IMG/VR virus record: IMGVR_UViG_3300045988_047384
Span: 1 to 11,972 of that record
Source of the DNA: a virus
Strand: one strand, 5' to 3'
Length of the DNA stretch: 11,972 nucleotides
Positions 1 to 11,972 of this stretch are shown piece after piece. A model generated the notes under the pieces. That model was not told the DNA's origin, did no database searches, and worked only from the letters and a program-made list of their open reading frames with translations. Positions within the stretch are counted from its first letter, which is position 1. Each line of letters begins with the position of its first letter. The translations under genes were made by a program, and so were the position numbers.

Positions 1-48
1 CGAGATTGTTGACTGTGACTGGAGTTCAGACGTGTGCTCTTCCGATCT
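1..48. other. Illumina TruSeq index adapter (reverse complement); technical contamination, not phage DNA
   Basis: Bases 1-48 are the exact reverse complement of 11925-11972. They read as AGATCGGAAGAGCACACGTCTGAACTCCAGTCAC + AGTCAA(CA) + ATCTCG, the TruSeq index-13 adapter. Confidence 0.97.
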
Positions 49-68
49 AAAGGTACACAAGGCACCCA

Positions 69-188
69 TTTTTAACATTTCCCAACACACTTTTAACACT
101 CTCTAACACACTTTGGCACACTTTTTGCTGTGTGCCGCAATTACGATTATTTAACACAATTAACACACCGTTAATACTGTTAAACTTT
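69..188. repeat. Array of TTAAC(A/C)-type motifs spaced about 10 bp apart, plus a hairpin, inside the ITR (mirrored at 11785-11904)
   Basis: AACAT/AACAC cores lie at 74, 84, 95 and 105, with GCACAC at 116. TTAACAC lies at 151 and 161, TTAATAC at 171 and TTAAAC at 180. Spacing is 9-11 bp. A hairpin GGCACAC-N8-GTGTGCC lies at 115-136. Confidence 0.6.
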
Positions 189-198
189 CATAAAAATA

Positions 199-243
199 AT
201 GTTTCACGTGGAACGGTGGTAACGGGGTGTTTCACGTGAAACA
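199..243. promoter_or_regulatory. Two copies of a CACGTG-centred palindromic operator-like site (mirrored at 11730-11774)
   Basis: GTTTCACGTGGAAC lies at 201-214. The perfect 14-bp palindrome GTTTCACGTGAAAC lies at 229-242 and extends to GTGTTTCACGTGAAACA at 227-243. The two copies are 28 bp apart. Confidence 0.5.
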
Positions 244-293
244 AGTGTTAACAACAGTTAATTTATTTCTTTAAGACTTTTTAACAAAAATAA

Positions 294-325
294 TTTGGTG
301 GTTTCGCAAAAACGTTGTACCTTTG
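294..325 (+). promoter_or_regulatory. Bacteroidota-type promoter inside the left ITR, driving the + arm
   Basis: TTTG (294-297), a 20-nt spacer, then TACCTTTG (318-325). This matches TTTG-N19-21-TAnnTTTG. The first + strand ATG is at 375. Confidence 0.55.
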
Positions 326-374
326 CATCAGAGTTAAGAAACATATAAGTTTAACAAATTAAATTAGGTAAATT

Positions 375-542
375 ATGAATGAGAATTTTAATGAAACTGT
401 TTTCAACTGTATTACCAGTGTCAACGCTCTTATGACTTCGAACGAGGTTGCTAAAGACGATAAGGCGGTTATTAAGTTGAACCGCTTTAAGAAGTGGTTG
501 AACGAGTTTGCGGCTGCAAACGGTGTGAACGAGGTTAAGTAA
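375..542 (+). CDS. Hypothetical small early protein (55 aa), below the ORF-track length cutoff
   Basis: Hand translation gives MNENFNETVFNCITSVNALMTSNEVAKDDKAVIKLNRFKKWLNEFAAANGVNEVK* with ATG at 375 and TAA at 540-542. It is co-oriented with the ITR promoter and all neighbouring genes. I prefer it to the antisense 359-562 ORF. Confidence 0.5.
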   Translation: MNENFNETVFNCITSVNALMTSNEVAKDDKAVIKLNRFKKWLNEFAAANGVNEVK

Positions 543-593
543 TTAACCCCGTTCAAAGACAACAGAAGTTTAACGTTTAAAAGGTTTTAAGTT

Positions 594-959
594 ATGCAAA
601 AGGGTTTTAGTTTTGCTAGTACTTTTAATAAGACTAGTTTCGGGATTGATACAACAGATTTCCCGTTTGTTAAGTTGGTTGACATTTTCAACGATAATAA
701 AGACGGTGGTGGCGATGTGGTGCACCCTATCAACGGTTTGTACGTTCATAAGTCACAGTTGGGGGATTCGCCCGTTATCATTGATGCCGAAAACAAACGA
801 CTTGTTAATTTACCCCAGTTTACAGGTGACACAATTCGTGACATTTTGGCGAATAGTGAGGCTGTAGATGCTATCAAAGCCAACAAAGTTGGTTACACGA
901 TTTATGAATATGAATCGCACGCCAAAAAGTGTTACGGTATTACCTTTGTAGATAAGTAG
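594..959 (+). CDS. Hypothetical early protein (121 aa); possible phi29 p5-like ssDNA-binding protein
   Basis: Clean ATG ORF followed by an intrinsic terminator. Its size (121 aa against 124 aa for p5), its position ahead of the TP/polymerase pair, and a weak C-terminal resemblance to p5 as I recall it suggest the function. The functional call is weak. Confidence 0.55.
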   Translation: MQKGFSFASTFNKTSFGIDTTDFPFVKLVDIFNDNKDGGGDVVHPINGLYVHKSQLGDSPVIIDAENKRLVNLPQFTGDTIRDILANSEAVDAIKANKVGYTIYEYESHAKKCYGITFVDK

Positions 960-986
960 TTGTAAGGTGAAAGGGTTGATAACGTC

Positions 987-1027
987 ACGGGGTAAACAGT
1001 AATTTATTTATTGTTACCCCGTTTTTT
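987..1027 (+). terminator. Intrinsic terminator or attenuator after the 121-aa gene
   Basis: Stem ACGGGGTAA (987-995) pairs with TTACCCCGT (1014-1022) and is followed by T6 (1022-1027). No recognisable promoter lies between it and the ATG at 1053. Confidence 0.6.
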
Positions 1028-1052
1028 GTTTCATTTTAAATTTTAGTAAGTT

Positions 1053-1715
1053 ATGGCAAAAAAGAATCCAATAGGGTTTAGTAAAAGAACTTTTTCATTT
1101 ACGGGAAAAATTCACGTAAAAAGCGAGATTTTAACCGCTTTGGAATCAGACCCCGTTTTGCGTAAAGAGATTGCCCGAACTTTTCAACAGGCAAACCGGC
1201 GCATACAAAATGTTGAAGATTCGGGTATCGTTTCGCCTGCAGTTGTTGCCCTTAACAAAGGTGACGTGAAAGGGTTTGCAAAGTTTTCAATGAAACACGA
1301 TTGGAACGATTTAAAAATCGAATATGCCAAAGCGGTGGCGTTTTTGCAACAACCTACATCAAGTGCAACGGGTGCGAAAGAATATGCGCAACACCTAAAG
1401 AGCACGTACAAACTAAACGATGATGAATTTAGTTTGATGCAAAATAAATTAATGGGTAAGATTGCGAGTGTTTCCGATGAAAAGTTTTTGGAGCAATATT
1501 TAATGCAATACAAAGACTTTACGGGCGAACTTGAACAAGAAAGTAAAGACGTTTCAGACCAAATCGAAGACGATGCGATAAAAATAGCAGATTCGTTGCA
1601 AGATGACTTGAACGAACAGGCAGAAGCTATCGAAGAAGAGCATGAACGAATGAGTGGTTTATTAGATGATACACTTACAAAGATTCTAAAAAGTTTCAAA
1701 AAATTCGGTTTATAA
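1053..1715 (+). CDS. Candidate terminal protein (220 aa)
   Basis: It lies immediately upstream of the protein-primed polymerase, and its stop overlaps the polymerase start (TAATG at 1713-1717), as with phi29 gp3-gp2. The N-terminus is basic and the C-terminal part is helical and acidic. Assignment rests on synteny and composition only. Confidence 0.55.
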   Translation: MAKKNPIGFSKRTFSFTGKIHVKSEILTALESDPVLRKEIARTFQQANRRIQNVEDSGIVSPAVVALNKGDVKGFAKFSMKHDWNDLKIEYAKAVAFLQQPTSSATGAKEYAQHLKSTYKLNDDEFSLMQNKLMGKIASVSDEKFLEQYLMQYKDFTGELEQESKDVSDQIEDDAIKIADSLQDDLNEQAEAIEEEHERMSGLLDDTLTKILKSFKKFGL

Positions 1716-3925
1716 TGAAAAAGATACCCTTTGAACTTCACACCGAAATTTACACGCCTAAAGATATTGCAAAGGTTTTATCTTTGGCGGTGAATGAAAA
1801 GAACTTCACAGGAAACAATAAGGGCGAAAAGTTATTAAATGTGCCTGTTTCATTTGATATTGAAACTACTTCATTTTATCGTGATGAAGACGGGGAAACA
1901 TATAGTTATGACCGTTACATAAAATTAGGTGGTAAAGATACCAAAATGGAAAAATGTAGTTTAATGTATGTTTGGCAATTTGGAATAAACGGTTTTTGCA
2001 TTATTGGTAGAACGTGGGAAGAATTTTTGCAAATGTTAGATGATATCGTGGAAATAATGAATTTGAACCAAAAAAGGCGCATTATTATATACGTTCACAA
2101 TTTGGCTTATGAATTCCAATTTTTCAGAGAGTTATTGCAATGGGCAAAGGTTTTTTCAATAGACCTTAGAAAACCTATTTACGGAATCACAGAAAACGGA
2201 ATAGAGTTCAGATGTAGTTATTTGCTTTCGGGTTATTCACTTGCAAAACTCGGTGAACAATTACGCAAATATAAATGTGAAAAGTTGGTTGGTGATTTAG
2301 ATTACAGCCTGTTACGGCACAGCAAAACCCCGTTAACGCAAAAAGAAATGGGTTATTGTTTGAACGATATTAAAGTAGTTATGTGCTATATACAGGAATT
2401 AATCGAACAATACAAAAACATTACCCATTTGCCGATAACAAAGACAGGCTTTGTGCGCAAATATTGCCGTTCTGTGTGTTTCAAGACAACAGACCCAGAA
2501 ACAGGTAAAACGGTACAGAATTTTAAGTATTTGGATAAAATCCATAACTTAAATATAACAGGTATAGAAGAGTTTGAAATGCTACAAAGGGCTTTTTCGG
2601 GCGGTTTCACACACGCAAATGCAAAATATACGGATGAGGTAATAGAAAACGTAGATAGTTACGATTTTACTAGTAGCTACCCGTATGTGATGGTAAGCGA
2701 AAAATTTCCTATGAGTACAGGTGTATTTGTTCCTGTTAAGTCTATGAAACAATTTGAGTTTATGACCTCAAAATATTGCTGTGTCTTTGACGTGGAATTT
2801 ACCAACATCTTTGCAAATTCGGATAATGAAAACCCAATATCTGTTAGTAAGTGTTTCGTAAAAGAAAATGTTTCAGAAAATAACGGTCGTTTGGTTTGTG
2901 CTAGTAAAATCTGTATGACTATCACGGAAATAGATTACAAAGTGTTTTCACAGTTCTATATGTGGGAATCTGTGAGAATAGGCAAAATGATCTGTTACCG
3001 AAAAGAATATTTGCCCACCGAGTTTATAAAATCTATTTTGCACCTGTATGAAATGAAAACAAAACTAAAAGGTGTAAAGGGCAAGGAAGTAGAGTATTTA
3101 AATAGCAAGGAAATGCTGAATAGCTGCTACGGTATGAGTGTAACAAACCCTTTGCGGGATGAAATTGTATGTGATGGTAAAACGTGGGACGTTGAACACT
3201 TGACAGGCGGAAAACGCTTAGAGGTGCTGAACAGATACAATGACAGCAGAAACCGTTTTCTTTTCTATCCGTGGGGAATCTATGTAACAGCCTATGCACG
3301 TAGGAATCTGTTTACAGGTATAGCGGAATGCGGTGACGATTACATATATAGCGACACAGACAGCGTAAAAATAAAAAATGGTGAAAACCATAAAGAGTAT
3401 TTCAAAGCCTATAACGATTTGGCACAGCAAAAATTGCGGGCGGCCTGTAAGTTTCACAAAATACCCTTTGAAAAGGTTGAACCTGTAACGATAAAGGGAA
3501 TCGCAAAACCGTTGGGGGTTTGGGATTATGAGGGACGTTACAACCGTTTCAAAACTTTAGGTGCAAAACGTTATATGGTGGAAGAAGAAAACGTCCTAAC
3601 AGTAAACGGCAAAGATTACAATTATTCCATGACCGTTTCGGGCGTTAACAAAAAATCAGCTATCCCTTATATGTTAAAAACCTTTGGAGAAAGTGGAATC
3701 TTTGATGCGTTCACAAATTATCTGGATATTCCACCTAGTGCAACAGGTAAGAATATTCATACATATATTGATTACGAACAAACGGGAACAATAAAAGACT
3801 ATATGGGCAACGTTTCAAGTTACGACACTACAACGGGGGTGCACTTAGAACCAACGGGGTACACTTTAAGTCTTTCAGTTCTTTATATAAATTATTTAAT
3901 GGGAATCAGATTAAAGAAAGAATAA
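1715..3925 (+). CDS. Family-B DNA polymerase, protein-primed type (736 aa)
   Basis: Readable motifs:
- ExoI: SFDIETTS
- ExoII: YVHNLAYEF
- ExoIII: YCLNDIKVV
- motif A: DSYDFTSSYPYVM
- motif B: KEMLNSCYGMS
- motif C: YSDTDSV (nt 3347-3367)
- KxY: GAKRY. Confidence 0.97.
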   Translation: MKKIPFELHTEIYTPKDIAKVLSLAVNEKNFTGNNKGEKLLNVPVSFDIETTSFYRDEDGETYSYDRYIKLGGKDTKMEKCSLMYVWQFGINGFCIIGRTWEEFLQMLDDIVEIMNLNQKRRIIIYVHNLAYEFQFFRELLQWAKVFSIDLRKPIYGITENGIEFRCSYLLSGYSLAKLGEQLRKYKCEKLVGDLDYSLLRHSKTPLTQKEMGYCLNDIKVVMCYIQELIEQYKNITHLPITKTGFVRKYCRSVCFKTTDPETGKTVQNFKYLDKIHNLNITGIEEFEMLQRAFSGGFTHANAKYTDEVIENVDSYDFTSSYPYVMVSEKFPMSTGVFVPVKSMKQFEFMTSKYCCVFDVEFTNIFANSDNENPISVSKCFVKENVSENNGRLVCASKICMTITEIDYKVFSQFYMWESVRIGKMICYRKEYLPTEFIKSILHLYEMKTKLKGVKGKEVEYLNSKEMLNSCYGMSVTNPLRDEIVCDGKTWDVEHLTGGKRLEVLNRYNDSRNRFLFYPWGIYVTAYARRNLFTGIAECGDDYIYSDTDSVKIKNGENHKEYFKAYNDLAQQKLRAACKFHKIPFEKVEPVTIKGIAKPLGVWDYEGRYNRFKTLGAKRYMVEEENVLTVNGKDYNYSMTVSGVNKKSAIPYMLKTFGESGIFDAFTNYLDIPPSATGKNIHTYIDYEQTGTIKDYMGNVSSYDTTTGVHLEPTGYTLSLSVLYINYLMGIRLKKE

Positions 3926-3926
3926 T

Positions 3927-5063
3927 ATGAAACAGAAGAAAGAAAAGGTAGAAACACCGAAATTCTACACGTTGAATCGAATTTTATCAAAGAATGCAGA
4001 TTACAATGTAATTTTCGGTGAACGTTCCAACGGTAAGACCTATGCAACGTTACTGTATGGAATCAAAGAATATTTGCGCACAGGAAAACAAATGGCTTAT
4101 ATTCGTAGATGGCGAGAGGATTTAAGGGGCAAACGTGCCGAAAGTTTGTTTGCAAACCACGTTTCAAACGGTGTTGTAGAAGAACTTACAAACGGCAAAT
4201 TTAACGAAGTGTTTTACGTTTCGGGCAAATGGTTTCTTTCAAGCTATGATCCCGAAACAAAGAAACGTGTACCCGATAACGTGCCGTTCTGTTTCGGTTT
4301 CTGTCTGTCAGAACAGGAGCACGAAAAAAGTAGTAGTTACCCGAATATAACTACTATAGTTTTCGATGAGTTTTTGACAAGACGTTATTATTTGCCCGAT
4401 GAGTTCATGTTGTATATGAACCTGTTGAGTACTATTATCAGACAGCGAAACGATGTTAAAGTGTTTATGCTGGGAAACACCGTGAATCAGTTTTGCCCGT
4501 ATTTTACAGAAATGGGGCTGAAACAGGTGCGGGTGATGGAACAGGGCACAATAGATATTTATAAATTCGGTGAACACGGTGCAACCGTGGCTGTAGAATA
4601 TTGCAGTACTATTGTTAAGCAGAAAGCGAGTAACAAATATTTCTGTTTCGATAATCAAAACCTGCAGATGATTACGGGTGGTAAGTGGGAACTTGCTGTT
4701 TATCCTCATCTACCTGTGAAATATACCCCGAAAGATGTGCTTTTCGTTTTCTATATACAGTTTAACGAAATGACATTACAGGGTAATATAATACAGGTGG
4801 AATCCTCAGACGGTGTTAATAACTTTATGTATATACATAACAAAACAACACCGATTAAGGACATGGAAAACAGTTTGATTTATTCCCTTTGTATGAACGG
4901 AAAACCAAACTACAGGCGAAAGTTATTATCTACAGCTAGTTACGTGGAATCTCAGATAACAAAGTATTTCGCCACCGATAAGGTATTTTATCAGAATAAC
5001 GAAATCGGTGAAATTGTGCGTAACTACTTAATGGCTAGTAGCAGAAGTAACATTATAACTTAA
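3927..5063 (+). CDS. DNA packaging (encapsidation) ATPase, phi29 gp16-like (378 aa)
   Basis: Walker A is GERSNGKTY (nt 4017-4043) and Walker B is TIVFDEF. The surrounding pattern (...AYIRRWRED..., SYPNITTIVFDEFLTR, FMLGNTVNQFCPYF) runs in parallel with phi29 gp16. Confidence 0.9.
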   Translation: MKQKKEKVETPKFYTLNRILSKNADYNVIFGERSNGKTYATLLYGIKEYLRTGKQMAYIRRWREDLRGKRAESLFANHVSNGVVEELTNGKFNEVFYVSGKWFLSSYDPETKKRVPDNVPFCFGFCLSEQEHEKSSSYPNITTIVFDEFLTRRYYLPDEFMLYMNLLSTIIRQRNDVKVFMLGNTVNQFCPYFTEMGLKQVRVMEQGTIDIYKFGEHGATVAVEYCSTIVKQKASNKYFCFDNQNLQMITGGKWELAVYPHLPVKYTPKDVLFVFYIQFNEMTLQGNIIQVESSDGVNNFMYIHNKTTPIKDMENSLIYSLCMNGKPNYRRKLLSTASYVESQITKYFATDKVFYQNNEIGEIVRNYLMASSRSNIIT

Positions 5064-5071
5064 TATCTGTT

Positions 5072-5117
5072 AAAACAGGGAAAAAAGTGTTTAACGTGAA
5101 ACATTTTCCCTGTTTTT
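5072..5117 (+). terminator. Intrinsic terminator after the replication/packaging operon, with an operator-like site in its loop
   Basis: A perfect 13-bp stem, AAAACAGGGAAAA (5072-5084) pairing with TTTTCCCTGTTTT (5104-5116), merges into a T-run. The 19-nt loop contains GTGTTTAACGTGAAACA (5087-5103). Confidence 0.65.
5087..5103. promoter_or_regulatory. Internal copy of the ITR palindromic operator-like motif
   Basis: GTGTTTAACGTGAAACA matches the ITR sequence GTGTTTCACGTGAAACA (227-243) at 16 of 17 positions. It lies 16 nt upstream of the -33 element of the internal promoter. Confidence 0.5.
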
Positions 5118-5118
5118 A

Positions 5119-5177
5119 TTTGGTTGTTTCAGATATTTTGTTTATCTTTGCACCATTAAATAACAAAGTTAAATTTG
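5119..5177 (+). promoter_or_regulatory. Internal Bacteroidota-type promoter or promoters for the structural-gene operon
   Basis: TTTG (5119-5122), 20 nt, then TATCTTTG (5143-5150). A second overlapping match is TTTG (5147-5150), 19 nt, then TAAATTTG (5170-5177), ending 5 nt before the ATG at 5183. Confidence 0.55.
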
Positions 5178-5182
5178 GCTAT

Positions 5183-5377
5183 ATGGACGTAAACGCAATA
5201 GTATCGTTAATTAGTAATGTTGGTTTTCCTGTAGCTGTCTGTATCGCCCTTTTCTTTTATATGGAAAAGCAAAACGAAAGACATCAGAATGAAACCGACA
5301 AGTTAAATGAAACAATACAGAGTAACACGAAAGTGTTAACTGAACTTTGTACGTTAATTAAAACACTTGTAAAGTAA
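5183..5377 (+). CDS. Small single-pass membrane protein (64 aa), YvrJ-like; holin/lysis candidate
   Basis: I used the internal ATG at 5183, because the track's GTG start at 5087 lies inside the terminator and promoter. The N-terminus MDVNAIVSLISNVGFPVAVCIALFFYMEK has one hydrophobic helix and the N-x-GFP-x-x-V signature I recall for the YvrJ family. The C-terminus is charged and helical. Its stop overlaps the portal start (TAATG). Confidence 0.6.
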   Translation: MDVNAIVSLISNVGFPVAVCIALFFYMEKQNERHQNETDKLNETIQSNTKVLTELCTLIKTLVK

Positions 5378-6474
5378 TGAAAAAAGATAATCTTTATAAC
5401 TTGTATCAAACACAGGTAAAAGACAAAGATACAGCCTTAGATACGTTCTTTCAGCGAGTTCTTTGTATGACATCAAAGATGTTTGAGTACACAGGGTTAC
5501 CCGATTCGATTCCACAGGTAGAACTTGAAAAGATTCTGCAGACATCGGGTAACGTTGGTATCGCAGAAGTAAACGGGGAACTGTATGCGTTACAGGGTAC
5601 ACGGGGCGGAGAATGTGATGCGTATTATCACGGCAAAGATTACGTTGTTGCAAACCCGTGGTTAAATTTGAACAAAACGTTTAAAATTGATTCCGATATT
5701 GTCGTTATCAACAACACACCGTTTGCAGATTCACTTTTGCCGATAATCGGCAAATATGGCGTACTTTACACCGATGCGGCAATAACGCTTAATTTGGCTA
5801 GCATTTTAACACGTATCACTATGTTGATTTCTGCTAGTGACGATAAGACCAAACAAAGCGCAGAATCTTTTTTGCAGAAGATTTTAAACGGTGATTTCTC
5901 AGTAATCGGGGAAAATGCCTTTTTCAAAGGTGTTAACTTACAAACACCCCAGACACAGGGAAACCAGCAAATCGGGCAATTAATTGAACTTTTGCAGTAC
6001 TATAAAGCTTCAATGTTCAACGATTTAGGTTTGAATGCAAACTATAATATGAAACGTGAACGTTTGAACACGCAAGAAGTTTCAATGAATATAGACGCTT
6101 TAATGCCGTTCGTTGATTCAATGTTAACAGAACGTGTTGAGGGTGTAAAACGTGTTAACGAAATGTTTGGCACAGATATTACGGTAACGTTGGGGTCTAG
6201 TTGGAAGATTGAGCACGAAAATTATTTGTCGTTACTCAAAGCAACAGAAGACGGGCACGACCACACCGATACAGAAGACGTTGACACTGTAACCGAAAAC
6301 GAAAATGAAGAAACAGAAGAAACGCAAGAAACAGAAGAAACGGAAACAGAAACAGAAGAAACGCAAGAAACAGAAGAAACGGAAACAGAAACAGAAGAAA
6401 CAGAAGAAACAGAAGAAACAGAAGAAACACAAGAAACAGAAACAGAAGAAAAAGAAAACAAAGATGAAAATTAA
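5377..6474 (+). CDS. Portal (connector / upper collar) protein, phi29 gp10-like (365 aa), with a repeat-encoded acidic tail
   Basis: F-E-Y-T-G-L-P...LEKIL...G-N-V-G parallels the phi29 gp10 N-terminus (FEWENLP...LEKSI...GYVGF). NMKRERLNTQEVSMN parallels NLEKKERMVTDEVSSN. The last ~65 residues are almost entirely E/T/Q/N. Confidence 0.82.
   Translation: MKKDNLYNLYQTQVKDKDTALDTFFQRVLCMTSKMFEYTGLPDSIPQVELEKILQTSGNVGIAEVNGELYALQGTRGGECDAYYHGKDYVVANPWLNLNKTFKIDSDIVVINNTPFADSLLPIIGKYGVLYTDAAITLNLASILTRITMLISASDDKTKQSAESFLQKILNGDFSVIGENAFFKGVNLQTPQTQGNQQIGQLIELLQYYKASMFNDLGLNANYNMKRERLNTQEVSMNIDALMPFVDSMLTERVEGVKRVNEMFGTDITVTLGSSWKIEHENYLSLLKATEDGHDHTDTEDVDTVTENENEETEETQETEETETETEETQETEETETETEETEETEETEETQETETEEKENKDEN
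6307..6453 (+). repeat. Purine-rich tandem repeat: 39-bp unit x2, then 9-bp GAAGAAACA-type units
   Basis: 6316-6354 and 6355-6393 are identical 39-mers (GAAGAAACGCAAGAAACAGAAGAAACGGAAACAGAAACA). They are followed by GAAGAAACA x4 and degenerate copies. The region encodes (E/T/Q)n in the portal frame. Confidence 0.9.
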
Positions 6475-7033
6475 CGAACTTTTCACGGGTGAAAATGGTT
6501 TGTTTGAAAAAATCTTCGCACCCATGTTTCCTGTTTTGTACAAATCAATATTCGGTGAAGATGACCCGAAAATAATTGATATTGATTTACGTTTCAAATA
6601 TGGAAACAGAAATCTAGTTGATGCAGTCACAAACGAAACTGCAACCGATATTGTTAAAAGCATTATCACGGTGAAGTTTGATGAATGGCAAAAACAGATT
6701 CAAGTGTTTAATAAAGAATATGACGTGTTAAACCCTGTAACATCAAAGAAGACGGAAACAACAAATAACACCGTTGACGAAACAGGCAATAATAACACGG
6801 TAGATTCAAGTGTAACTTTTAATGATGGAGATTTCGGAAATGACACAAAGCAGCAGCGAGATTCCACAGGGAACAGACAAGAAACTGGTACGAAAACAAC
6901 TGTTGAAAACAGTGTTCCGTCTTTCGTTCCTACTAGTGAAATTATTCAAAAAGAAATGAGTTTGCGCAAAACTAATTTCAAAACGCAAGTTATTGCAGAA
7001 CTTGCAAACGAGTTAACAGTAGATATTTATTAA
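6464..7033 (+). CDS. Virion protein (189 aa); possible lower collar / head-tail adaptor (gp11-like) or scaffold
   Basis: I used the ATG at 6464 (MKINELF...), which overlaps the portal stop by 11 nt. It lies between portal and capsid genes. It has a central T/N/S/G-rich low-complexity segment and a conserved-looking C-terminus (IIQKEMSLRKTNF...ELTVDIY). The functional call is tentative. Confidence 0.45.
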   Translation: MKINELFTGENGLFEKIFAPMFPVLYKSIFGEDDPKIIDIDLRFKYGNRNLVDAVTNETATDIVKSIITVKFDEWQKQIQVFNKEYDVLNPVTSKKTETTNNTVDETGNNNTVDSSVTFNDGDFGNDTKQQRDSTGNRQETGTKTTVENSVPSFVPTSEIIQKEMSLRKTNFKTQVIAELANELTVDIY

Positions 7034-7051
7034 TACTTAATTTTTATAAAA

Positions 7052-8236
7052 ATGGAAGTAAAACAGATTTATACTTTAGTAAACACAGTATCTGGTGAAG
7101 TTTTGGGTAAAACCGATATTGTCAAAGAAGATTTAACGGGTATCGTTGATTTGGGCAATGAGATTTTTAATCAAAATGCCGTTGACAATTACGTTAAATC
7201 GCTTGTAAACCATATCGGCAAAGTTGTTTTCGTAAACCGCCCTTACAGTGGTAAAGTTCCTAGCGTTTTGATGGATGCGTGGGAATTTGGTTCAGTTTTG
7301 GAAAAGATTTCAGCTGACGTTCCAAATGCTGAAGAGAATGACACGTGGAATCTTACAGACGGTAAAGAGTACAAACAGGACGTGTTCCACAAACCAACGG
7401 TTTCTGCTAAGTTCTTCAACTCTAAGGTAACTTTTGAAGTTCCCGTATCTATCACAGAAAGACAGGTAAAGGAATCTTTCAGCAGTGCAGAACAGTTGAA
7501 CGGTTTCATGTCAATGATTTATTCAGCCGTTGAAAAGTCAATGACTATCAAAACCGATGCACTTGTTATGCGTACTATTAACAATATGATTGCGGAAACT
7601 TTGGATGCAGACAAAGCCGCTTTCGGTTTTGTAACGTCAACACACGAAACAGTAGATTATTCTACTGCATCAACTGTTCGTTGTGTAAACTTGTTGCACC
7701 TTTACAACGAGAAGACGGGGGCAAAGTTGGCGGCAAACGTTGCCGTAACAACACCCGACTTTATCCGTTTTGCCGCTTACATTATGGGTTTGTATGCTGA
7801 CCGTTTGCAGACCATTTCGACTTTGTTCAACGTTGGAGGAAAAGAACGTTTCACACCGAAAGACGTGTTGCATACCGTTTTGTTGAGTGACTTTGCAGCC
7901 GCTGCAAAAACTTACCTGTATGCCGATACGTTCCATAATGAAAACGTGTTGTTGCCACAGGCTGAAACCGTTGCAAGTTGGCAAGCAACGGGCACAGATT
8001 ACGCTTTCGCCAACGTTTCAAAGGTTGACGTTAAGAGTGCAAGCGGTGCAACAGTTTCTATCGGGGGCGTGTTGGGTGTGATGTTTGACCGTGACGCTTT
8101 GGGCGTAACCAATTTGGATAAGCGAGTGACAACCAATTACAACGCCAAAGCAGAATTTTTCAACAATTATTTCAAATTCGATGCAGGCTACTTCAACGAC
8201 ACAAACGAAAACTTCGTTGTATTCTTTGTTGCCTAG
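7052..8236 (+). CDS. Major capsid protein, phi29 gp8-like (394 aa)
   Basis: NAVDNYVKSLVNHIGKVVFVNRP parallels phi29 gp8 NDFITSLVDRIGLVVIRQ. ...FSSAEQLNGFMSMIYSAVEKSMTIKTDALVMRTINN parallels ...[36 protein letters not shown]. A strong terminator follows, which suits a highly expressed gene. Confidence 0.82.
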   Translation: MEVKQIYTLVNTVSGEVLGKTDIVKEDLTGIVDLGNEIFNQNAVDNYVKSLVNHIGKVVFVNRPYSGKVPSVLMDAWEFGSVLEKISADVPNAEENDTWNLTDGKEYKQDVFHKPTVSAKFFNSKVTFEVPVSITERQVKESFSSAEQLNGFMSMIYSAVEKSMTIKTDALVMRTINNMIAETLDADKAAFGFVTSTHETVDYSTASTVRCVNLLHLYNEKTGAKLAANVAVTTPDFIRFAAYIMGLYADRLQTISTLFNVGGKERFTPKDVLHTVLLSDFAAAAKTYLYADTFHNENVLLPQAETVASWQATGTDYAFANVSKVDVKSASGATVSIGGVLGVMFDRDALGVTNLDKRVTTNYNAKAEFFNNYFKFDAGYFNDTNENFVVFFVA

Positions 8237-8254
8237 TTTTATTGTTTAACTGTT

Positions 8255-8300
8255 GGGGGTGTTTCTGTAGTTGATAACACAGGAATACCCCCCTTTTAAT
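8255..8300 (+). terminator. Intrinsic terminator or attenuator after the capsid gene
   Basis: A 14-bp stem, GGGGGTGTTTCTGT (8255-8268) pairing with ACAGGAATACCCCC (8279-8292), includes two G-U pairs that form only in the + strand RNA. The loop is 10 nt and CTTTTAATTTTT follows. Confidence 0.65.
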
Positions 8301-8309
8301 TTTTGCGGT

Positions 8310-8753
8310 ATGATTAAAATTAAAACTTTCGTTTACAACGGCAAACCAAACGAAGTAAACAAGACTTTACAGGCAAACAAAGAGTACACGGGCGTATTGA
8401 ACGCAACGTTTAATGTTTTAACGCCTGTAGTACGTTTCAGAACTCGCACGCCGGTAACTTTCAATTACGTTTACATCGAAAGTTTGAACCGTTATTATTT
8501 CGTTTCTGAGAAACAACAAGACGGTGATATTTGCACAGTTCGTTTGCGTGTTGACGTTCTGTTTACTTATAAGGATACTATTTTGAACAGTACGGGCAAA
8601 ATGATAAAAGGCGAAAACGTGGATAAATATCTTTCAAACCGTTCAAACGTTTTCGATTCACGCCCTAATATCAGAAAACTAGATTTTCCGAATAAAGAGC
8701 TGTTGAGTGAAGACGGTAGTATTATTATGGTAACAATTAAGGGAAATGTTTAA
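8310..8753 (+). CDS. Tail protein (147 aa) resembling the N-terminal domain of phi29 gp9 tail knob
   Basis: I used the ATG at 8310, because the track's TTG start at 8271 lies inside the terminator hairpin. NYVYIESLNRYYFVSEKQQDGDICTVRLRVDVLFTY parallels gp9 [42 protein letters not shown]. Confidence 0.5.
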   Translation: MIKIKTFVYNGKPNEVNKTLQANKEYTGVLNATFNVLTPVVRFRTRTPVTFNYVYIESLNRYYFVSEKQQDGDICTVRLRVDVLFTYKDTILNSTGKMIKGENVDKYLSNRSNVFDSRPNIRKLDFPNKELLSEDGSIIMVTIKGNV

Positions 8754-8755
8754 TT

Positions 8756-10318
8756 ATGAAAGTAACTTATAACATATCAGATCAAACAACCGTTATCGGG
8801 AACAAACCCGAAACGATTGAAAAGGGTGAGACTTTAAGTTTGAACTTACAGGCAAACACTGGATATAAGTTTGACCCTGCGCCGTTGGTTGCTATCAGAA
8901 CATCAAGTTTTCAGTATATCAATACAAACTTTGTTTTGGATTCCACAGGGAAAAAAGCAACGATTTCTTATGACATACCATCGAACGCCGCAGCGTGTAC
9001 CGTTAAGGCTTTTACTGTAGAAAGTGCAGACCCCAAACCCGAAACCGTAACAGTTACAAATACGTTATCAAATTGTACTAGTTCGTTAAACGATGGAACG
9101 GTAAACAAAGGGGAAGAGATAACAATAACTTTGACCGCAAACACGGGGTTTTCTTTTTCGGGTGCTGCCCCAACTGTTGACTACGAAACAACGGGCACGC
9201 CGTCAACGGTTTTTAATGTAGCTAGCGACAAATTAACCGCATCGGTTACAATTACACCAAACGACAATTTTACAATTAATGCTGACGCCCACGAAATTAA
9301 AACGTTTGTAAACGTTACATATAATTTGAAAAATTGTGTTTCAAGTTTGACGGGTAAAACTGTAGAAAAGGGCAAAGAAATTACGGTAACGGTGACGGCA
9401 AACGAAAATGCAATATTTGACGGAATAACTCCAAACGTTTACTATCTAGAGCACGGAATTCCGAAAACGGTTAACTTTACGCTAGATACAGAAAAGAAAA
9501 CTGGAAAGCTTACATTTACGCCAAATTTCAACTTCACTTTTAATGCCAACGCAAACATAATTGAACCTGTTGCAAAAAATTACGGTGCAATTAATGTTTA
9601 TAAAGTAAGTTTGGAAAATTTGGATGCTTTCAGTAAGCAACGTTTTTCTAAAGTTGTTGATGAAACAACAGGTGCAACACAAACCGTTAATTTAGGCGTT
9701 TATGTAAACCGAATAAAGCGCATTTTTGCCAACGTTCCAGTAAGTGGTACGGATAACTTGAAATGCGGTAACTACGATACAAAAATTATCGTGGAATCCC
9801 CAAAGACCGATATTTTAACAATAAATTTCGGAAACGTTGCCCTTACAGGGTTAAACGGTAACAATTCCGATTACGATGCAAAGATTTCGGTTTTTATCCC
9901 GTGCCGTGGTTTTGTTCCTGTTGATAGTTCATACATCGGTAAAACGGTTAACTTATCTTTGAAAGTTAACATCGTTACGGGTGATGCCGTGGCGTTCCTA
10001 TCGTGTGCCGGTACAACATTTCAGTTTGAAAGTTTTTCTTTGTCCCGTGATGTTATTTATCGAACAGGGGATAACGATTTAAATCTTATTGGCGGTGACG
10101 AATGGAACGAACAAATTTTATATGGTTTAGAACCTTACTTTTTGATAACGGAAAATAAAACCGTTGACGTTGTGATAAACAACACGCAAAAAGAAGTAAA
10201 GTTGCAAGACGTAACAGGGTTTGCACAGTTTGAAAACGTGGATTTGAACACGGTTAATTTGTTGGTAGATGAGTATAACACCATTATTTCAGAACTTGAA
10301 AACGGTGTTTATCTATAA
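8756..10318 (+). CDS. Tail knob / receptor-binding protein (520 aa): three tandem beta-rich repeat domains plus a gp9-like C-terminal part
   Basis: Repeats are aa 1-96, 97-183 and 184-270 (nt 8756-9565). They share V-T-Y-N-L-x-N-C...V-x-K-G-x-E-I-T-(I/V)-T-(L/V)-T-A-N...P-x-V-x-Y...F-T-(I/F)-N-A. C-terminal segments (ISVFIPCRGFVPVD...LSLKVNIVTGD and ...LLVDEYNTIISELENGVYL) resemble gp9 (MMYPYCVTEITDF... and ...DLQEIRTIFDNGITLW). Confidence 0.55.
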   Translation: MKVTYNISDQTTVIGNKPETIEKGETLSLNLQANTGYKFDPAPLVAIRTSSFQYINTNFVLDSTGKKATISYDIPSNAAACTVKAFTVESADPKPETVTVTNTLSNCTSSLNDGTVNKGEEITITLTANTGFSFSGAAPTVDYETTGTPSTVFNVASDKLTASVTITPNDNFTINADAHEIKTFVNVTYNLKNCVSSLTGKTVEKGKEITVTVTANENAIFDGITPNVYYLEHGIPKTVNFTLDTEKKTGKLTFTPNFNFTFNANANIIEPVAKNYGAINVYKVSLENLDAFSKQRFSKVVDETTGATQTVNLGVYVNRIKRIFANVPVSGTDNLKCGNYDTKIIVESPKTDILTINFGNVALTGLNGNNSDYDAKISVFIPCRGFVPVDSSYIGKTVNLSLKVNIVTGDAVAFLSCAGTTFQFESFSLSRDVIYRTGDNDLNLIGGDEWNEQILYGLEPYFLITENKTVDVVINNTQKEVKLQDVTGFAQFENVDLNTVNLLVDEYNTIISELENGVYL

Positions 10319-10321
10319 AAG

Positions 10322-10352
10322 AAAAGGGACGGTACAAATGCCGCCCCTTTTT
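10322..10352. terminator. Bidirectional intrinsic terminator where the two arms converge
   Basis: AAAA-GGGACGGTA (10326-10334), loop CAAA, then TGCCGCCCC (10339-10347) and TTTTT. It has an A-tract on one side and a T-tract on the other. It sits between the + stop at 10318 and the - stop at 10354. Confidence 0.7.
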
Positions 10353-10353
10353 C

Positions 10354-10599
10354 TTATTTGCTGTAAAATTCGTTCATTAAACCTTTCTTACCAAGGAAAT
10401 CAAAACATCTGTTTTTGATACCCATTTCTACATCTAAACAGTTAGAAAGATATTCAACTACTTTCTGCTGTGCCTGTAGTGTATCGATTACAGAGTTAAG
10501 CAATAAACCGTTATTACCTGTAGTGTTTTCTGCTACAAACTTTAAATTATCAATGGAAACTGAAATAGAATCCTGCAAAACCTTAAAACCTTTTTGCAT
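10354..10599 (-). CDS. Hypothetical protein (81 aa), last gene of the right arm
   Basis: ATG ORF starting 3 nt after the endolysin stop. It is predicted soluble and helical, and I recognise no motif. Confidence 0.55.
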   Translation of the reverse strand: MQKGFKVLQDSISVSIDNLKFVAENTTGNNGLLLNSVIDTLQAQQKVVEYLSNCLDVEMGIKNRCFDFLGKKGLMNEFYSK

Positions 10600-10602
10600 A
10601 AC

Positions 10603-11025
10603 TTATTTCTTTTCTAAGTTCATAATAATCTGTTGACGTGGTTTACCATTTCGTGGTGATACCGAAACGTGATACCAAAAACTTTTAGAGCCTTTGCGGT
10701 GCTCTTTAATAAGTTGATCAAACCCACCTGTTTCTCTCAGAACCTTTCCCAAAGATTCCATATCGGCACAAATTAAATCTGCGGCTAAACCCTTTTGGTG
10801 TTGGCTGTTAGTTACACCACCTACAGCCTTATTTAACACAGGACATCTAAAACCGCTAGAAATAAGAATCGGTTTACCCACCTTTTCACGGATTCCATCT
10901 AGATAATCTGCTAGACGGTTTAAGTTGTCCACTACCTCAAACGTTGGCATATTGTCTATGCTAAGACGTTTTGCGGTTGCTGAATTAATAAACTCAGACA
11001 ATTTAAAATACTTGATCCTTTTCAT
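10603..11025 (-). CDS. Peptidase M15 (M15_3 / DD- or LD-peptidase fold) endolysin (140 aa)
   Basis: The family signature is ...PILISSGFRCPVLNKAVGGVTNSQHQKGLAADL...FWYHVSV. The Zn ligands H-x6-D (SQHQKGLAAD) and a distal H (YHV) are present. There is no signal peptide. Confidence 0.88.
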   Translation of the reverse strand: MKRIKYFKLSEFINSATAKRLSIDNMPTFEVVDNLNRLADYLDGIREKVGKPILISSGFRCPVLNKAVGGVTNSQHQKGLAADLICADMESLGKVLRETGGFDQLIKEHRKGSKSFWYHVSVSPRNGKPRQQIIMNLEKK

Positions 11026-11026
11026 A

Positions 11027-11227
11027 TTACTTTTCTGTTGGTAAAACTACAAACCATTTACGAGTATCTTTGTGAGTTGGAAAACGACCTTTAACTGTAA
11101 TTGAGCAATCGCCCAAAAGGTAGTCTATTTTATTGTTAAAGAACTCGCTTACTTTATCAGAACGTACCATATAAACGGTAACGTTATTAACCTGTTTCAA
11201 AGTGATTTTAAAATAACTATGTTCCAT
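11027..11227 (-). CDS. Hypothetical protein (66 aa from ATG 11227; 80 aa if GTG 11269 is used)
   Basis: ORF MEHSYFKITLKQVNNVTVYMVRSDKV.... I prefer the ATG because the upstream GTG lies inside a G-rich hairpin. Its stop abuts the endolysin start. Confidence 0.5.
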   Translation of the reverse strand: MEHSYFKITLKQVNNVTVYMVRSDKVSEFFNNKIDYLLGDCSITVKGRFPTHKDTRKWFVVLPTEK

Positions 11228-11281
11228 ATTATATGTATTTATGCCCGTGAGTGATACCCCCACCCCCACAGGCTGTTAATA

Positions 11282-11611
11282 TTAACAGATTCTTTCGGCT
11301 GTAAACTCATAACGTACTGTTTCGATGTACTCACCGCTATATATGTTAGTTACAGTTACGAAACCGTAACCAATAGCGTAAATATCTGCAATGTTGCTTT
11401 TATAAGCATACATCGTTTTAGGATAACGTACACCCTGTATAGGGATTCTATTCATATTATAAATGCCTGTTAGCATTTTATTAATATGGTTTGCCACTTC
11501 GTACATATTACCATTTATAACAGTAGATGAAAATGGAATATCTTTGGTGAAACGTGTGCCGTTACAATGTGCGTCACGGTTTGCCTTTACTGTAATATTG
11601 TACTTTGCCAT
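11282..11611 (-). CDS. Hypothetical protein (109 aa), first gene of the right arm
   Basis: ATG at 11611, 36 nt downstream of the right-ITR promoter -7 element. I recognise no motif. Confidence 0.6.
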   Translation of the reverse strand: MAKYNITVKANRDAHCNGTRFTKDIPFSSTVINGNMYEVANHINKMLTGIYNMNRIPIQGVRYPKTMYAYKSNIADIYAIGYGFVTVTNIYSGEYIETVRYEFTAERIC

Positions 11612-11627
11612 AATTTAATTGTTTTAC

Positions 11628-11924
11628 TATGTTTCTTAACTCTGATGCAAAGGTACAACGTTTTTGCGAAACCACCAAATTATTTTTGTTAAAAAGTCTT
11701 AAAGAAATAAATTAACTGTTGTTAACACTTGTTTCACGTGAAACACCCCGTTACCACCGTTCCACGTGAAACATTATTTTTATGAAAGTTTAACAGTATT
11801 AACGGTGTGTTAATTGTGTTAAATAATCGTAATTGCGGCACACAGCAAAAAGTGTGCCAAAGTGTGTTAGAGAGTGTTAAAAGTGTGTTGGGAAATGTTA
11901 AAAATGGGTGCCTTGTGTACCTTT
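11628..11924. repeat. Right inverted terminal repeat (297 bp)
   Basis: Perfect reverse complement of 49-345, ending ...GTACCTTT directly before the adapter. Confidence 0.93.
11648..11679 (-). promoter_or_regulatory. Bacteroidota-type promoter inside the right ITR, driving the - arm
   Basis: Mirror image of 294-325: CAAAGGTA at 11648-11655 (TACCTTTG on the - strand) and CAAA at 11676-11679, with a 20-nt spacer. Confidence 0.55.
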
Positions 11925-11972
11925 AGATCGGAAGAGCACACGTCTGAACTCCAGTCACAGTCAACAATCTCG
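11925..11972. other. Illumina TruSeq index adapter; technical contamination
   Basis: AGATCGGAAGAGCACACGTCTGAACTCCAGTCAC-AGTCAACA-ATCTCG. Confidence 0.97.

Follow-up and report, generated by a model that had tools for sequence, protein, structure and literature searches.

We have analyzed an 11,972-nucleotide (nt) stretch of viral DNA, IMG/VR record IMGVR_UViG_3300045988_047384 (hereafter the window, meaning this whole stretch), with emphasis on the inverted terminal repeat (ITR) at each of its ends. It is highly probable that the window represents the complete, adapter-flanked, linear genome (11,876 bp, positions 49-11924) of an uncultured human-gut phage that is phi29-like and related to Astrithrvirus, and that each ITR is a composite control region. 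This estimate is a joint one, covering the identity of the genome, the anatomy of the ITRs, the presence of three transcription units and the occasional conversion of one end by the other. The main features of the window are as follows.

1..48: read-through of an Illumina TruSeq adapter (P7 end, 8-nt index and Read-2 primer site), not phage sequence
49..345, plus strand: left ITR, 297 bp, 100% identical to the right copy
49..135, plus strand: terminus AAAGGTACAC and highly conserved terminal block, putative minimal origin for terminal-protein priming, judged from conservation in relatives
64..190, plus strand: TTAACA(C)/AACAC array, made up of direct and inverted repeat families
200..215 (mirror 11758-11773): distal operator-like palindrome TGTTTCACGTGGAACG
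228..243 (mirror 11730-11745): proximal operator-like palindrome TGTTTCACGTGAAACA, a perfect 16-bp palindrome
294..325, plus strand: predicted left-arm promoter, -33 TTTG(GTGG), 20-nt spacer, -7 TACCTTTG(CA), predicted start 330
375..5063, plus strand: left (early) operon with ORF55, ORF121, putative terminal protein, DNA polymerase and packaging ATPase
5075..5121, plus strand: predicted intrinsic terminator hairpin ending the left operon, operator palindrome at its tip
5088-5103: central copy of the operator palindrome, at the tip of the terminator hairpin
5119..5150, plus strand: predicted central (late) promoter, TTTGGTTG-N16-TATCTTTG, predicted start 5155
5183..10318, plus strand: late operon with holin-like protein, connector, probable scaffold, phi29-type major capsid protein and two tail-knob genes
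10322..10351: predicted bidirectional terminator between the late operon and the right arm
10354..11611, minus strand: right-arm operon with ORF109, ORF66, M15 peptidase endolysin (10603-11025) and ORF81
11648..11679, minus strand: predicted right-arm promoter, identical to the left, predicted start 11643
11628..11924, minus strand: right ITR, 297 bp, inner boundary independently backed by a contig break in a k=31 assembly
11925..11972: the same Illumina adapter in mirror image at the right end

Profile searches against Pfam and PHROGs identified a protein-primed family-B DNA polymerase (PF03175, E = 2e-15; phrog_1907, E = 6e-71), a gp16-type packaging ATPase (PF05894, E = 3e-24), a connector (PF05352, E = 3e-15) and a major capsid protein (PF25622, E = 3e-54). 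At the protein level, the nearest cultured phages are those of the Astrithrvirus group, with polymerase identities of 44-46% (46% across 94% of the length for Salmonella phage Astrid). A whole-genome megablast against 50,697 phage records gave no nucleotide-level match, and relatives surfaced at the protein level alone. A polymerase scan of IMG/VR returned 80 near-complete relatives with 90-93% amino-acid identity.

Physical termini of the genome

A repeat search returned a terminal inverted repeat with arms at 1-345 and 11628-11972 (345 nt, 100% complementary). The reverse complement of the outer 48 nt reads AGATCGGAAGAGCACACGTCTGAACTCCAGTCAC + AGTCAACA + ATCTCG. We take the last two parts to be the index and the start of P7; the first, AGATCGGAAGAGCACACGTCTGAACTCCAGTCAC, is the standard Illumina adapter string used for trimming in published work. 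An adapter junction assembles at a single base because many fragments end there, and base 49 (AAAGGTACAC...) is therefore a physical end of the DNA. The same junction, CTCTTCCGATCT followed directly by AAAGG, is present in seven relatives, and more than 25 independently assembled relatives begin at AAAGGTACAC, seven of them directly after adapter remnants. With the adapter trimmed off, the ITRs span 297 bp and are 100% identical, exactly as an earlier preliminary description, made from the sequence by a model, had stated for positions 49-345.

That description had also taken the ITRs to be true repeats, a view that the sharing of the terminus by relatives supports together with three further observations. 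The two ITR copies adjoin different unique flanks. In the Logan k=31 assembly of run SRR3993060, a right-arm contig opens with tgtacctttgcatcagagttaagaaacata followed by gtaaaac, exactly 30 nt inside the repeat boundary, the overhang to be expected when a de Bruijn unitig ends at a repeat. A MEGAHIT contig with the same terminus is joined to unrelated bacterial DNA exactly at AAAGG. On this evidence the repeat is judged genuine and not the product of assembler fold-back or duplication.

Untrimmed adapter in deposited contigs would inflate the apparent ITR to 345 instead of 297 bp and could pass for phage DNA. Relatives end in three to six A residues (AAAGG to AAAAAAGG, as seen in six of them). 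This variation could reflect slippage during sliding-back initiation, or else an A-tailing or assembly effect.

Predicted inward promoters within the ITRs

The inner 50 bp of each ITR carries a well-supported inward promoter of a host type. The left promoter consists of TTTG at 294-297 and TACCTTTG at 318-325, then C, and is mirrored at 11648-11679. In extended form, TTTG-N20-TACCTTTGC occurs at 294-326 with its mirror copy, and TTTG-N20-TATCTTTGC occurs at 5119-5151. The spacer shared by the two terminal promoters of the window is TTTCGCAAAAACGTTG. The housekeeping promoter consensus of Bacteroidota comprises TTTG at -33 and TANNTTTGY at -7 (PMC12632263), and the sigma-A box TAnnTTTG of this phylum sits at -12 to -5 (PMC9723704). 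From this position of the box, starts are therefore predicted at 330 and 11643. Each predicted start is 16 nt inside the repeat, and the first 16 nt of the two arm transcripts would be identical in the window. The predicted leaders measure 45 nt (left), 32 nt (right) and 28 nt (central).

The pattern TTTG-N17-23-TANNTTTG occurs six times in the window against 1.39 expected, a count reached by one of 200 shuffles. Three of the six occurrences are the two ITR copies and 5119-5150, each located just ahead of an operon; the central copy falls in the sole sizeable plus-strand intergenic gap, directly before the late genes. The comparative evidence for the promoter is much stronger than these single-genome statistics. 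Nearly all of the ~80 close relatives have the motif at either end as well as centrally, with a spacing that is almost always 20 nt. Conservation was scored in 180 distinct promoters of relatives and only at positions left free by the search pattern. It was 0.98 and 0.97 for the two bases 3' of TTTG, 0.93 and 1.0 for the free positions of TAnnTTTG, and 0.98 and 0.97 for the two bases past the box; the mean for the 16-nt spacer was 0.64. Such conservation of the boxes around a free spacer is the footprint of a two-box promoter. Proteobacterial relatives have near-consensus sigma-70 promoters at the equivalent sites (TTGACA-17-TATAAT in Phanie and TTGACG-17-TAGAAT in DU_PP_III). The genes of the window lack Shine-Dalgarno sites, which are obvious in Salmonella phage Astrid.

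Most of what the preliminary description had said of transcription is supported by these data. It had proposed a complete inward TTTG-N20-TACCTTTG promoter in the inner ~50 bp of each ITR, and this promoter is present, mirrored and conserved in relatives. Its start at ~330, within the repeat, agrees with the starts derived from the position of the sigma-A box, and the identical first nucleotides that it expected on both arm messages amount, by sequence, to 16 in this genome. The ATG codons that it listed at 375 and 11611, and the right-arm genes orf109, orf66, endolysin and orf81, all exist as listed.

In the proposed mechanism, the left transcript would start at ~330, cover the replication and packaging genes and stop at the hairpin at 5075-5121. 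The late genes would be transcribed from a third such promoter, which has the palindrome at about -60. The right transcript, from ~11643, would cover four small genes including the endolysin.

Operator-like palindromes and terminators

The proximal palindrome TGTTTCACGTGAAACA, or a close variant, occurs at five sites in the window (10 strand matches, against 0.14 expected) and is conserved at 0.99 in relatives. Two to three palindrome copies lie upstream of each terminal promoter in relatives, and a single copy precedes the central -33 box by 30-33 nt, counted from start to start. In the window, the centre of the central palindrome is ~60 nt ahead of the predicted late start, and the centres of the proximal and distal palindromes are ~95 and ~123 nt ahead of the predicted terminal starts. 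We infer from this arrangement that the palindromes would bind a dimeric regulator coordinating all three promoters. Profile searches of the small proteins of the window, together with structural models of ORF121 and ORF109, revealed none that could be assigned as the palindrome-binding regulator.

The central palindrome forms the tip of a hairpin with a fold energy of -21.7 kcal/mol (z = -4.6). Its outer stem shows compensatory changes among relatives and a T-run follows it; as judged from these features, the hairpin at 5075-5121 is the terminator of the left operon. The view of the central palindrome as a mere part of this terminator was rejected, as the outer stem co-varies while the 16-bp tip stays identical to the ITR copies. 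The T-run of the terminator overlaps the -33 box of the late promoter. With the palindrome at the hairpin tip, termination, regulator binding and late-promoter recognition would therefore all be located within ~75 nt.

A further terminator-like hairpin (ACGGGGTAAACA...TGTTACCCCGT, then T6) is located at 986-1030, past ORF121 and ahead of the putative terminal-protein gene, where it may act as an attenuator of transcription entering the replication genes. In phi29, a terminator is located inside gene 4 (PMC11476376).

Putative replication origin

The outer ~90 nt is the best-conserved part of the ITR (0.90-0.97 in 27 relatives). The ends of phi29-like genomes carry three identical terminal bases that permit sliding-back (PMC6266182), and the terminus AAAGG, set by adapter junctions in the window and seven relatives, fits this rule. 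The outer ~90 nt is thus a candidate replication origin whose 3'-TTT template end would allow sliding-back. A complex of terminal protein and DNA polymerase would start replication here at both ends. TTAACAC occurs 15 times in the window against 5.2 expected, with eight of the 15 occurrences within the two ITRs. The TTAACA(C)/AACAC array possibly represents binding sites for an origin-organising protein.

Divergence and proposed conversion of the two ends

Left and right ends were compared in 76 genomes with both ends present, and the perfect repeat was measured from the terminus. In relatives it extends over 117 to 383 nt. In 64 of the 76 genomes, the left and right ends first disagree at a position 26-170 nt from the promoter on its terminus side, and in these the left and right spacers differ. 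The perfect repeat covers the promoter in eight genomes, including that of the window, and ends within the promoter in one relative.

Left promoter regions have an identity of 0.83 to other left regions versus 0.68 to right regions, and the reverse holds for right regions. Spacer types are specific to each side: CGTGnAAAA was found in 54 of the 76 right ends, and 45 of the 77 left ends have CGCAAAA. This makes the two promoters old paralogues maintained by selection, and by this comparison the left and right sequence types predate the genomes compared. The boxes are conserved even beyond the reach of the repeat, and selection, not homogenisation, therefore appears to maintain them.

The eight genomes whose repeat covers the promoter come from five or more polymerase clusters, and the genomes closest to them (92-96% nucleotide identity) do not show that state. 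Given this scattered occurrence, the promoter-covering state must have arisen repeatedly. The shared inner ITR end of the window is itself a mosaic, with a left-type spacer and right-type first eight bases after the -7 box (CATCAGAG). These sequence comparisons support the occurrence of end homogenisation in this clade, and they indicate that promoter identity is an occasional, recurrent product of end-to-end conversion and not a built-in rule. The preliminary description had gone further in suggesting that any process homogenising the ends would keep the two promoters identical. That suggestion does not fit the 64 of 76 relatives in which the promoters differ, the distinct left and right types, or the polyphyly of the identical state.

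The perfect part of the repeat would have spread inward across the promoter by gene conversion between the ends. A perfect outer part, a decayed inner part and patchy inward extension would fit either template switching from one end to the other or the repair of a heteroduplex (panhandle) between the ITRs. The most likely route would be repair of a panhandle or heteroduplex formed from the ITRs of a displaced single strand, presumably as in adenovirus, to which we turn by analogy.

Weighing of alternative explanations

A fixed ITR module of origin plus promoter, in which replication-linked homogenisation continuously holds the promoters identical and co-regulates both arms, would account for the identical promoters and first 16 transcribed nt of the window and for the seven relatives in the same state, and it has parallels in the mirrored promoters located wholly within the perfect ITRs of phages P1 and asccphi28. 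We consider it improbable, since 64 of 76 close relatives have non-identical promoters beyond the perfect repeat, distinct left and right types are retained from lineage to lineage, the genomes with identical promoters belong to scattered lineages whose closest neighbours do not share this state, and the boxes are conserved even where the repeat stops short. An assembly artefact, with the repeat or its inner 50-100 bp derived from fold-back, collapse or strain chimerism and a true right end bearing its own promoter, deserves far less credence still. The untrimmed adapter on the contig speaks for such an artefact, as do the many related contigs whose perfect repeats measure exactly 55, 99, 119 or 141 nt, which are assembler k-mer sizes, and the many co-occurring strains in metagenomes (the product of the first gene is found in 1331 blocks of an assembly index). 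Against it, the copies join different unique flanks, and the k=31 break in SRR3993060 requires at least 30 nt, the -7 box included, to be common to both junctions in the reads. In addition, left/right differences survive assembly in most relatives, and isolates of the same group have ITRs of 84-219 bp.

We give equally little weight to the view that the boxes TTTGGTGG and TAYCTTTGCA are binding sites for a replication or packaging protein, with transcription starting elsewhere. In its favour, a melainabacterium is a possible host, and promoters of the Bacteroidota type are undocumented in that group; in addition, a sigma-70-like TTTGCA-N17-TATAAG can be read at 321-349 on the left arm. This sigma-70-like reading was rejected, as the candidate downstream -10 hexamers are unconserved on the right arm. 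The same pair of boxes at the same 20-nt spacing also precedes the late operon in mid-genome, far from any origin; the match extends to the Y after TANNTTTG, and the leader lengths are within Bacteroidota norms.

The reading of the ITR as a composite control region with occasional conversion between ends has several points to contend with as well. Assemblers may smooth small differences between copies, and the figure of 100% identity could conceal low-frequency variants. Promoter and origin activities are both deduced from sequence and comparison, and the mechanism of conversion is proposed by analogy with adenovirus. The terminal-protein assignment is built on gene position and a weak pairwise match (E = 2e-7). 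An Rfam scan of the window at E <= 1 found no pRNA, nor any other RNA family. To our knowledge, pRNA is unreported in Astrithrvirus too, and its absence from the window therefore bears on the narrow phi29 genus and not on the wider group. Lastly, the sole two matches in 185,579 GTDB species genomes are phage contigs binned into metagenome-assembled genomes (MAGs) of Candidatus Gastranaerophilales (Melainabacteria), in which a Bacteroidota-type promoter would be unexpected.

Host

The promoter type, the missing Shine-Dalgarno sites and the gut origin all point to Bacteroidota. The MAG matches could reflect the true host, or composition-driven mis-binning of a contig with 35-37% GC. On this sequence evidence we regard a host in Bacteroidota as likely, one in Gastranaerophilales as a considerably weaker candidate, and any other host as unlikely. 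A literature search for phi29-like phages of Gastranaerophilales or Melainabacteria found nothing relevant, and a search for homologues of the endolysin, used as a host clue, gave matches solely within the same phage group.

In one 22-kb contig (ENA ERZ27311769, contig k141_151061), the AAAGGTACAC terminus is fused to 9.6 kb of bacterial DNA at 1-9629. The bacterial part has a GC content of 46% and encodes RNR, FolB, LicD/DnaA-like and DUF6080 genes; it carries TAnnTTTG promoters, lacks Shine-Dalgarno sites and looks Bacteroidales-like by sequence. The fusion may be a library or assembly chimera, or real end-joining in the host.

Comparison with other protein-primed systems

Promoters within long ITRs have been annotated in several protein-primed phages. 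Mycoplasma phage P1 (NC_002515, Delislevirus) resembles the window in having an 11.7-kb genome, a protein-primed polymerase and perfect 350-bp ITRs, each with an annotated inward promoter (mirrored at 227-260 and 11401-11434) that drives converging arms. In contrast to the window, its sequence is distant, the polymerase is its first gene, its Mycoplasma host has its own promoter type and its annotation includes no operator palindromes. In Lactococcus phage asccphi28 (NC_010363), the ITRs measure 577 bp and contain putative inward promoters at mirrored positions (P2, 502-530; P7, 18233-18261), with weaker homology past the perfect part, to 609 nt. This phage differs in its 18.8-kb genome, its Gram-positive host, its sigma-70-type promoters and an ITR that also carries outward promoters and terminators. 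Streptococcus phage Cp-1 (NC_001825) has a perfect ITR of 236 bp with a decayed extension to 352 nt at 97.7% identity, which repeats the contrast between outer and inner parts found in the clade of the window, and its early starts are annotated in GenBank at mirrored positions (PE1 at 351 on the left, PE4 at mirrored 351 and PE5 at mirrored 257). Unlike those of the window, but like those of most of its relatives, the Cp-1 promoters either cross the inner edge of the perfect repeat or are located past it, and the Cp-1 genome is 19 kb with a Gram-positive host.

The Astrithrvirus group (Salmonella phages Astrid and astrithr, Acinetobacter phage Phanie and Pectobacterium phage DU_PP_III) shares the two-arm gene layout and a genome size of 11.5-11.9 kb, and isolates have perfect ITRs of 84, 171 and 219 bp. 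A strong inward promoter (TTGACG-17-TAGAAT) is located at 189-217 in DU_PP_III, inside its 219-bp ITR, and the promoters of Phanie and Astrid are 40-50 nt internal to the ITR. In contrast to the window, these phages have proteobacterial hosts, sigma-70 consensus promoters and clear Shine-Dalgarno sites, and the clade of the window falls below genus-level similarity to them. The distant faecal contigs MT836125 and MT836155 provided no informative ITR or promoter.

Like the window, phi29 has an inward early promoter near a genome end, the right-end C2. According to two published accounts, the p6 complex at the genome end of phi29 activates replication initiation and represses the C2 promoter (PMC11476376; PMC10899789). 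No p6 homologue was found in the window. The ITR of phi29 is only 6 bp and its two ends have different promoters. As a benchmark for ITR length, as used in the preliminary description, phi29 is misleading given the ITRs of Astrithrvirus (84-219 bp), Cp-1 (236 bp), P1 (350 bp) and asccphi28 (577 bp). In adenovirus, the protein-primed origin is at the extreme end of the ITR with transcription-factor sites further in, and non-identical ends can be homogenised through ITR pairing of the displaced strand. Adenovirus differs in being a eukaryotic virus of unrelated sequence, with an ITR that lacks a complete promoter for the flanking genes.

The union of origin and promoter in one ITR is thus an established arrangement, to which this genome adds a promoter of a different host type. 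The preliminary description had proposed that origin and promoter functions are combined in a single terminal module. As a layout this is real here, with a putative origin function, but it is not new, being annotated in P1, asccphi28 and Cp-1 (the latter with annotated starts).

Significance

No new principle emerges from promoters located within long ITRs. What is new is a Bacteroidota-type promoter in a phi29-like phage, an operator shared by its promoters, and population-level evidence for an ITR boundary that moves across a promoter. We tentatively suggest, at somewhat less than even chances, that this clade is the first protein-primed, phi29-like lineage on Bacteroidota-type -33/-7 promoters, with hundreds of variants recording repeated, patchy end-to-end gene conversion. 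If the Bacteroidota promoters are as they appear, gut Bacteroidales would have in it a very abundant picovirus-like phage; should the MAG binning prove correct instead, the data would be evidence for such promoters in Gastranaerophilales. A true record of conversion would provide a natural read-out of tract length and direction for panhandle-type ITR repair in a bacteriophage, and we know of no demonstration of such repair in phages to date.

The analysis provides an adapter-anchored genome end and a predicted map of three promoters and one operator for a phage that is very common in human gut metagenomes. The promoter type gives a useful hint at the host in a group known in culture only from phages of Proteobacteria. 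A mobile ITR boundary, with promoters that can be overwritten from the opposite end, would matter wherever taxonomy or genome completeness is judged by the length or identity of the ITR, and would also be relevant to the engineering of protein-primed linear replicons.

Gene content and additional observations

The minus-strand genes of the window are the four small ones in the final 1.3 kb. The individual genes of the left operon are as follows.

375-542, plus strand: ORF55, small protein
594-959, plus strand: ORF121, small protein
1053-1715, plus strand: putative terminal protein, 220 aa, named from its position and overlapping the polymerase gene
1715-3925, plus strand: protein-primed family-B DNA polymerase (PF03175)
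3927-5063, plus strand: gp16-type packaging ATPase (PF05894)

The 220-aa open reading frame (ORF) immediately upstream of the polymerase gene has no Pfam or PHROG match, and its weak match is to the equivalently placed ORF of Astrid. Its designation as a putative terminal protein follows mainly from gene position together with that match. ORF55, ORF121, ORF109, ORF66 and ORF81 matched nothing in Pfam and PHROGs, including at relaxed thresholds. A single-sequence AlphaFold2 model of ORF121 was unusable (pLDDT 46.5). ORF109 (11282-11611), the first right-arm gene, gave a confident AlphaFold2 model (pLDDT 89.5) with an alpha/beta fold, for which a comparison with the PDB found no match above a TM-score of 0.5. 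The ORF109 family is confined to the phage clade of the window.

The tail knob is divided into two genes (8271-10318), as in Acinetobacter phage Phanie. Phanie is non-infectious unless attached to the tail of a helper myophage (PMC11476376), and by analogy a similar helper-tail dependence could exist in the clade of the window.

A tandem 9-nt repeat (GAAACAGAA and variants) with at least 12 copies at 6291-6482 gives the connector an acidic C-terminal tail rich in Glu, Thr and Gln. The repeat region also overlaps the beginning of the following ORF, and the connector varies from 348 to 365 aa across relatives. A 22-nt inverted repeat (21 of 22 positions identical) at 588-609 and 10584-10605 covers the start codon of ORF121 in its left-arm copy and that of ORF81 in its right-arm copy. 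Both proteins start with MQKGF, and 22 of 79 relatives have the repeat at the two sites.

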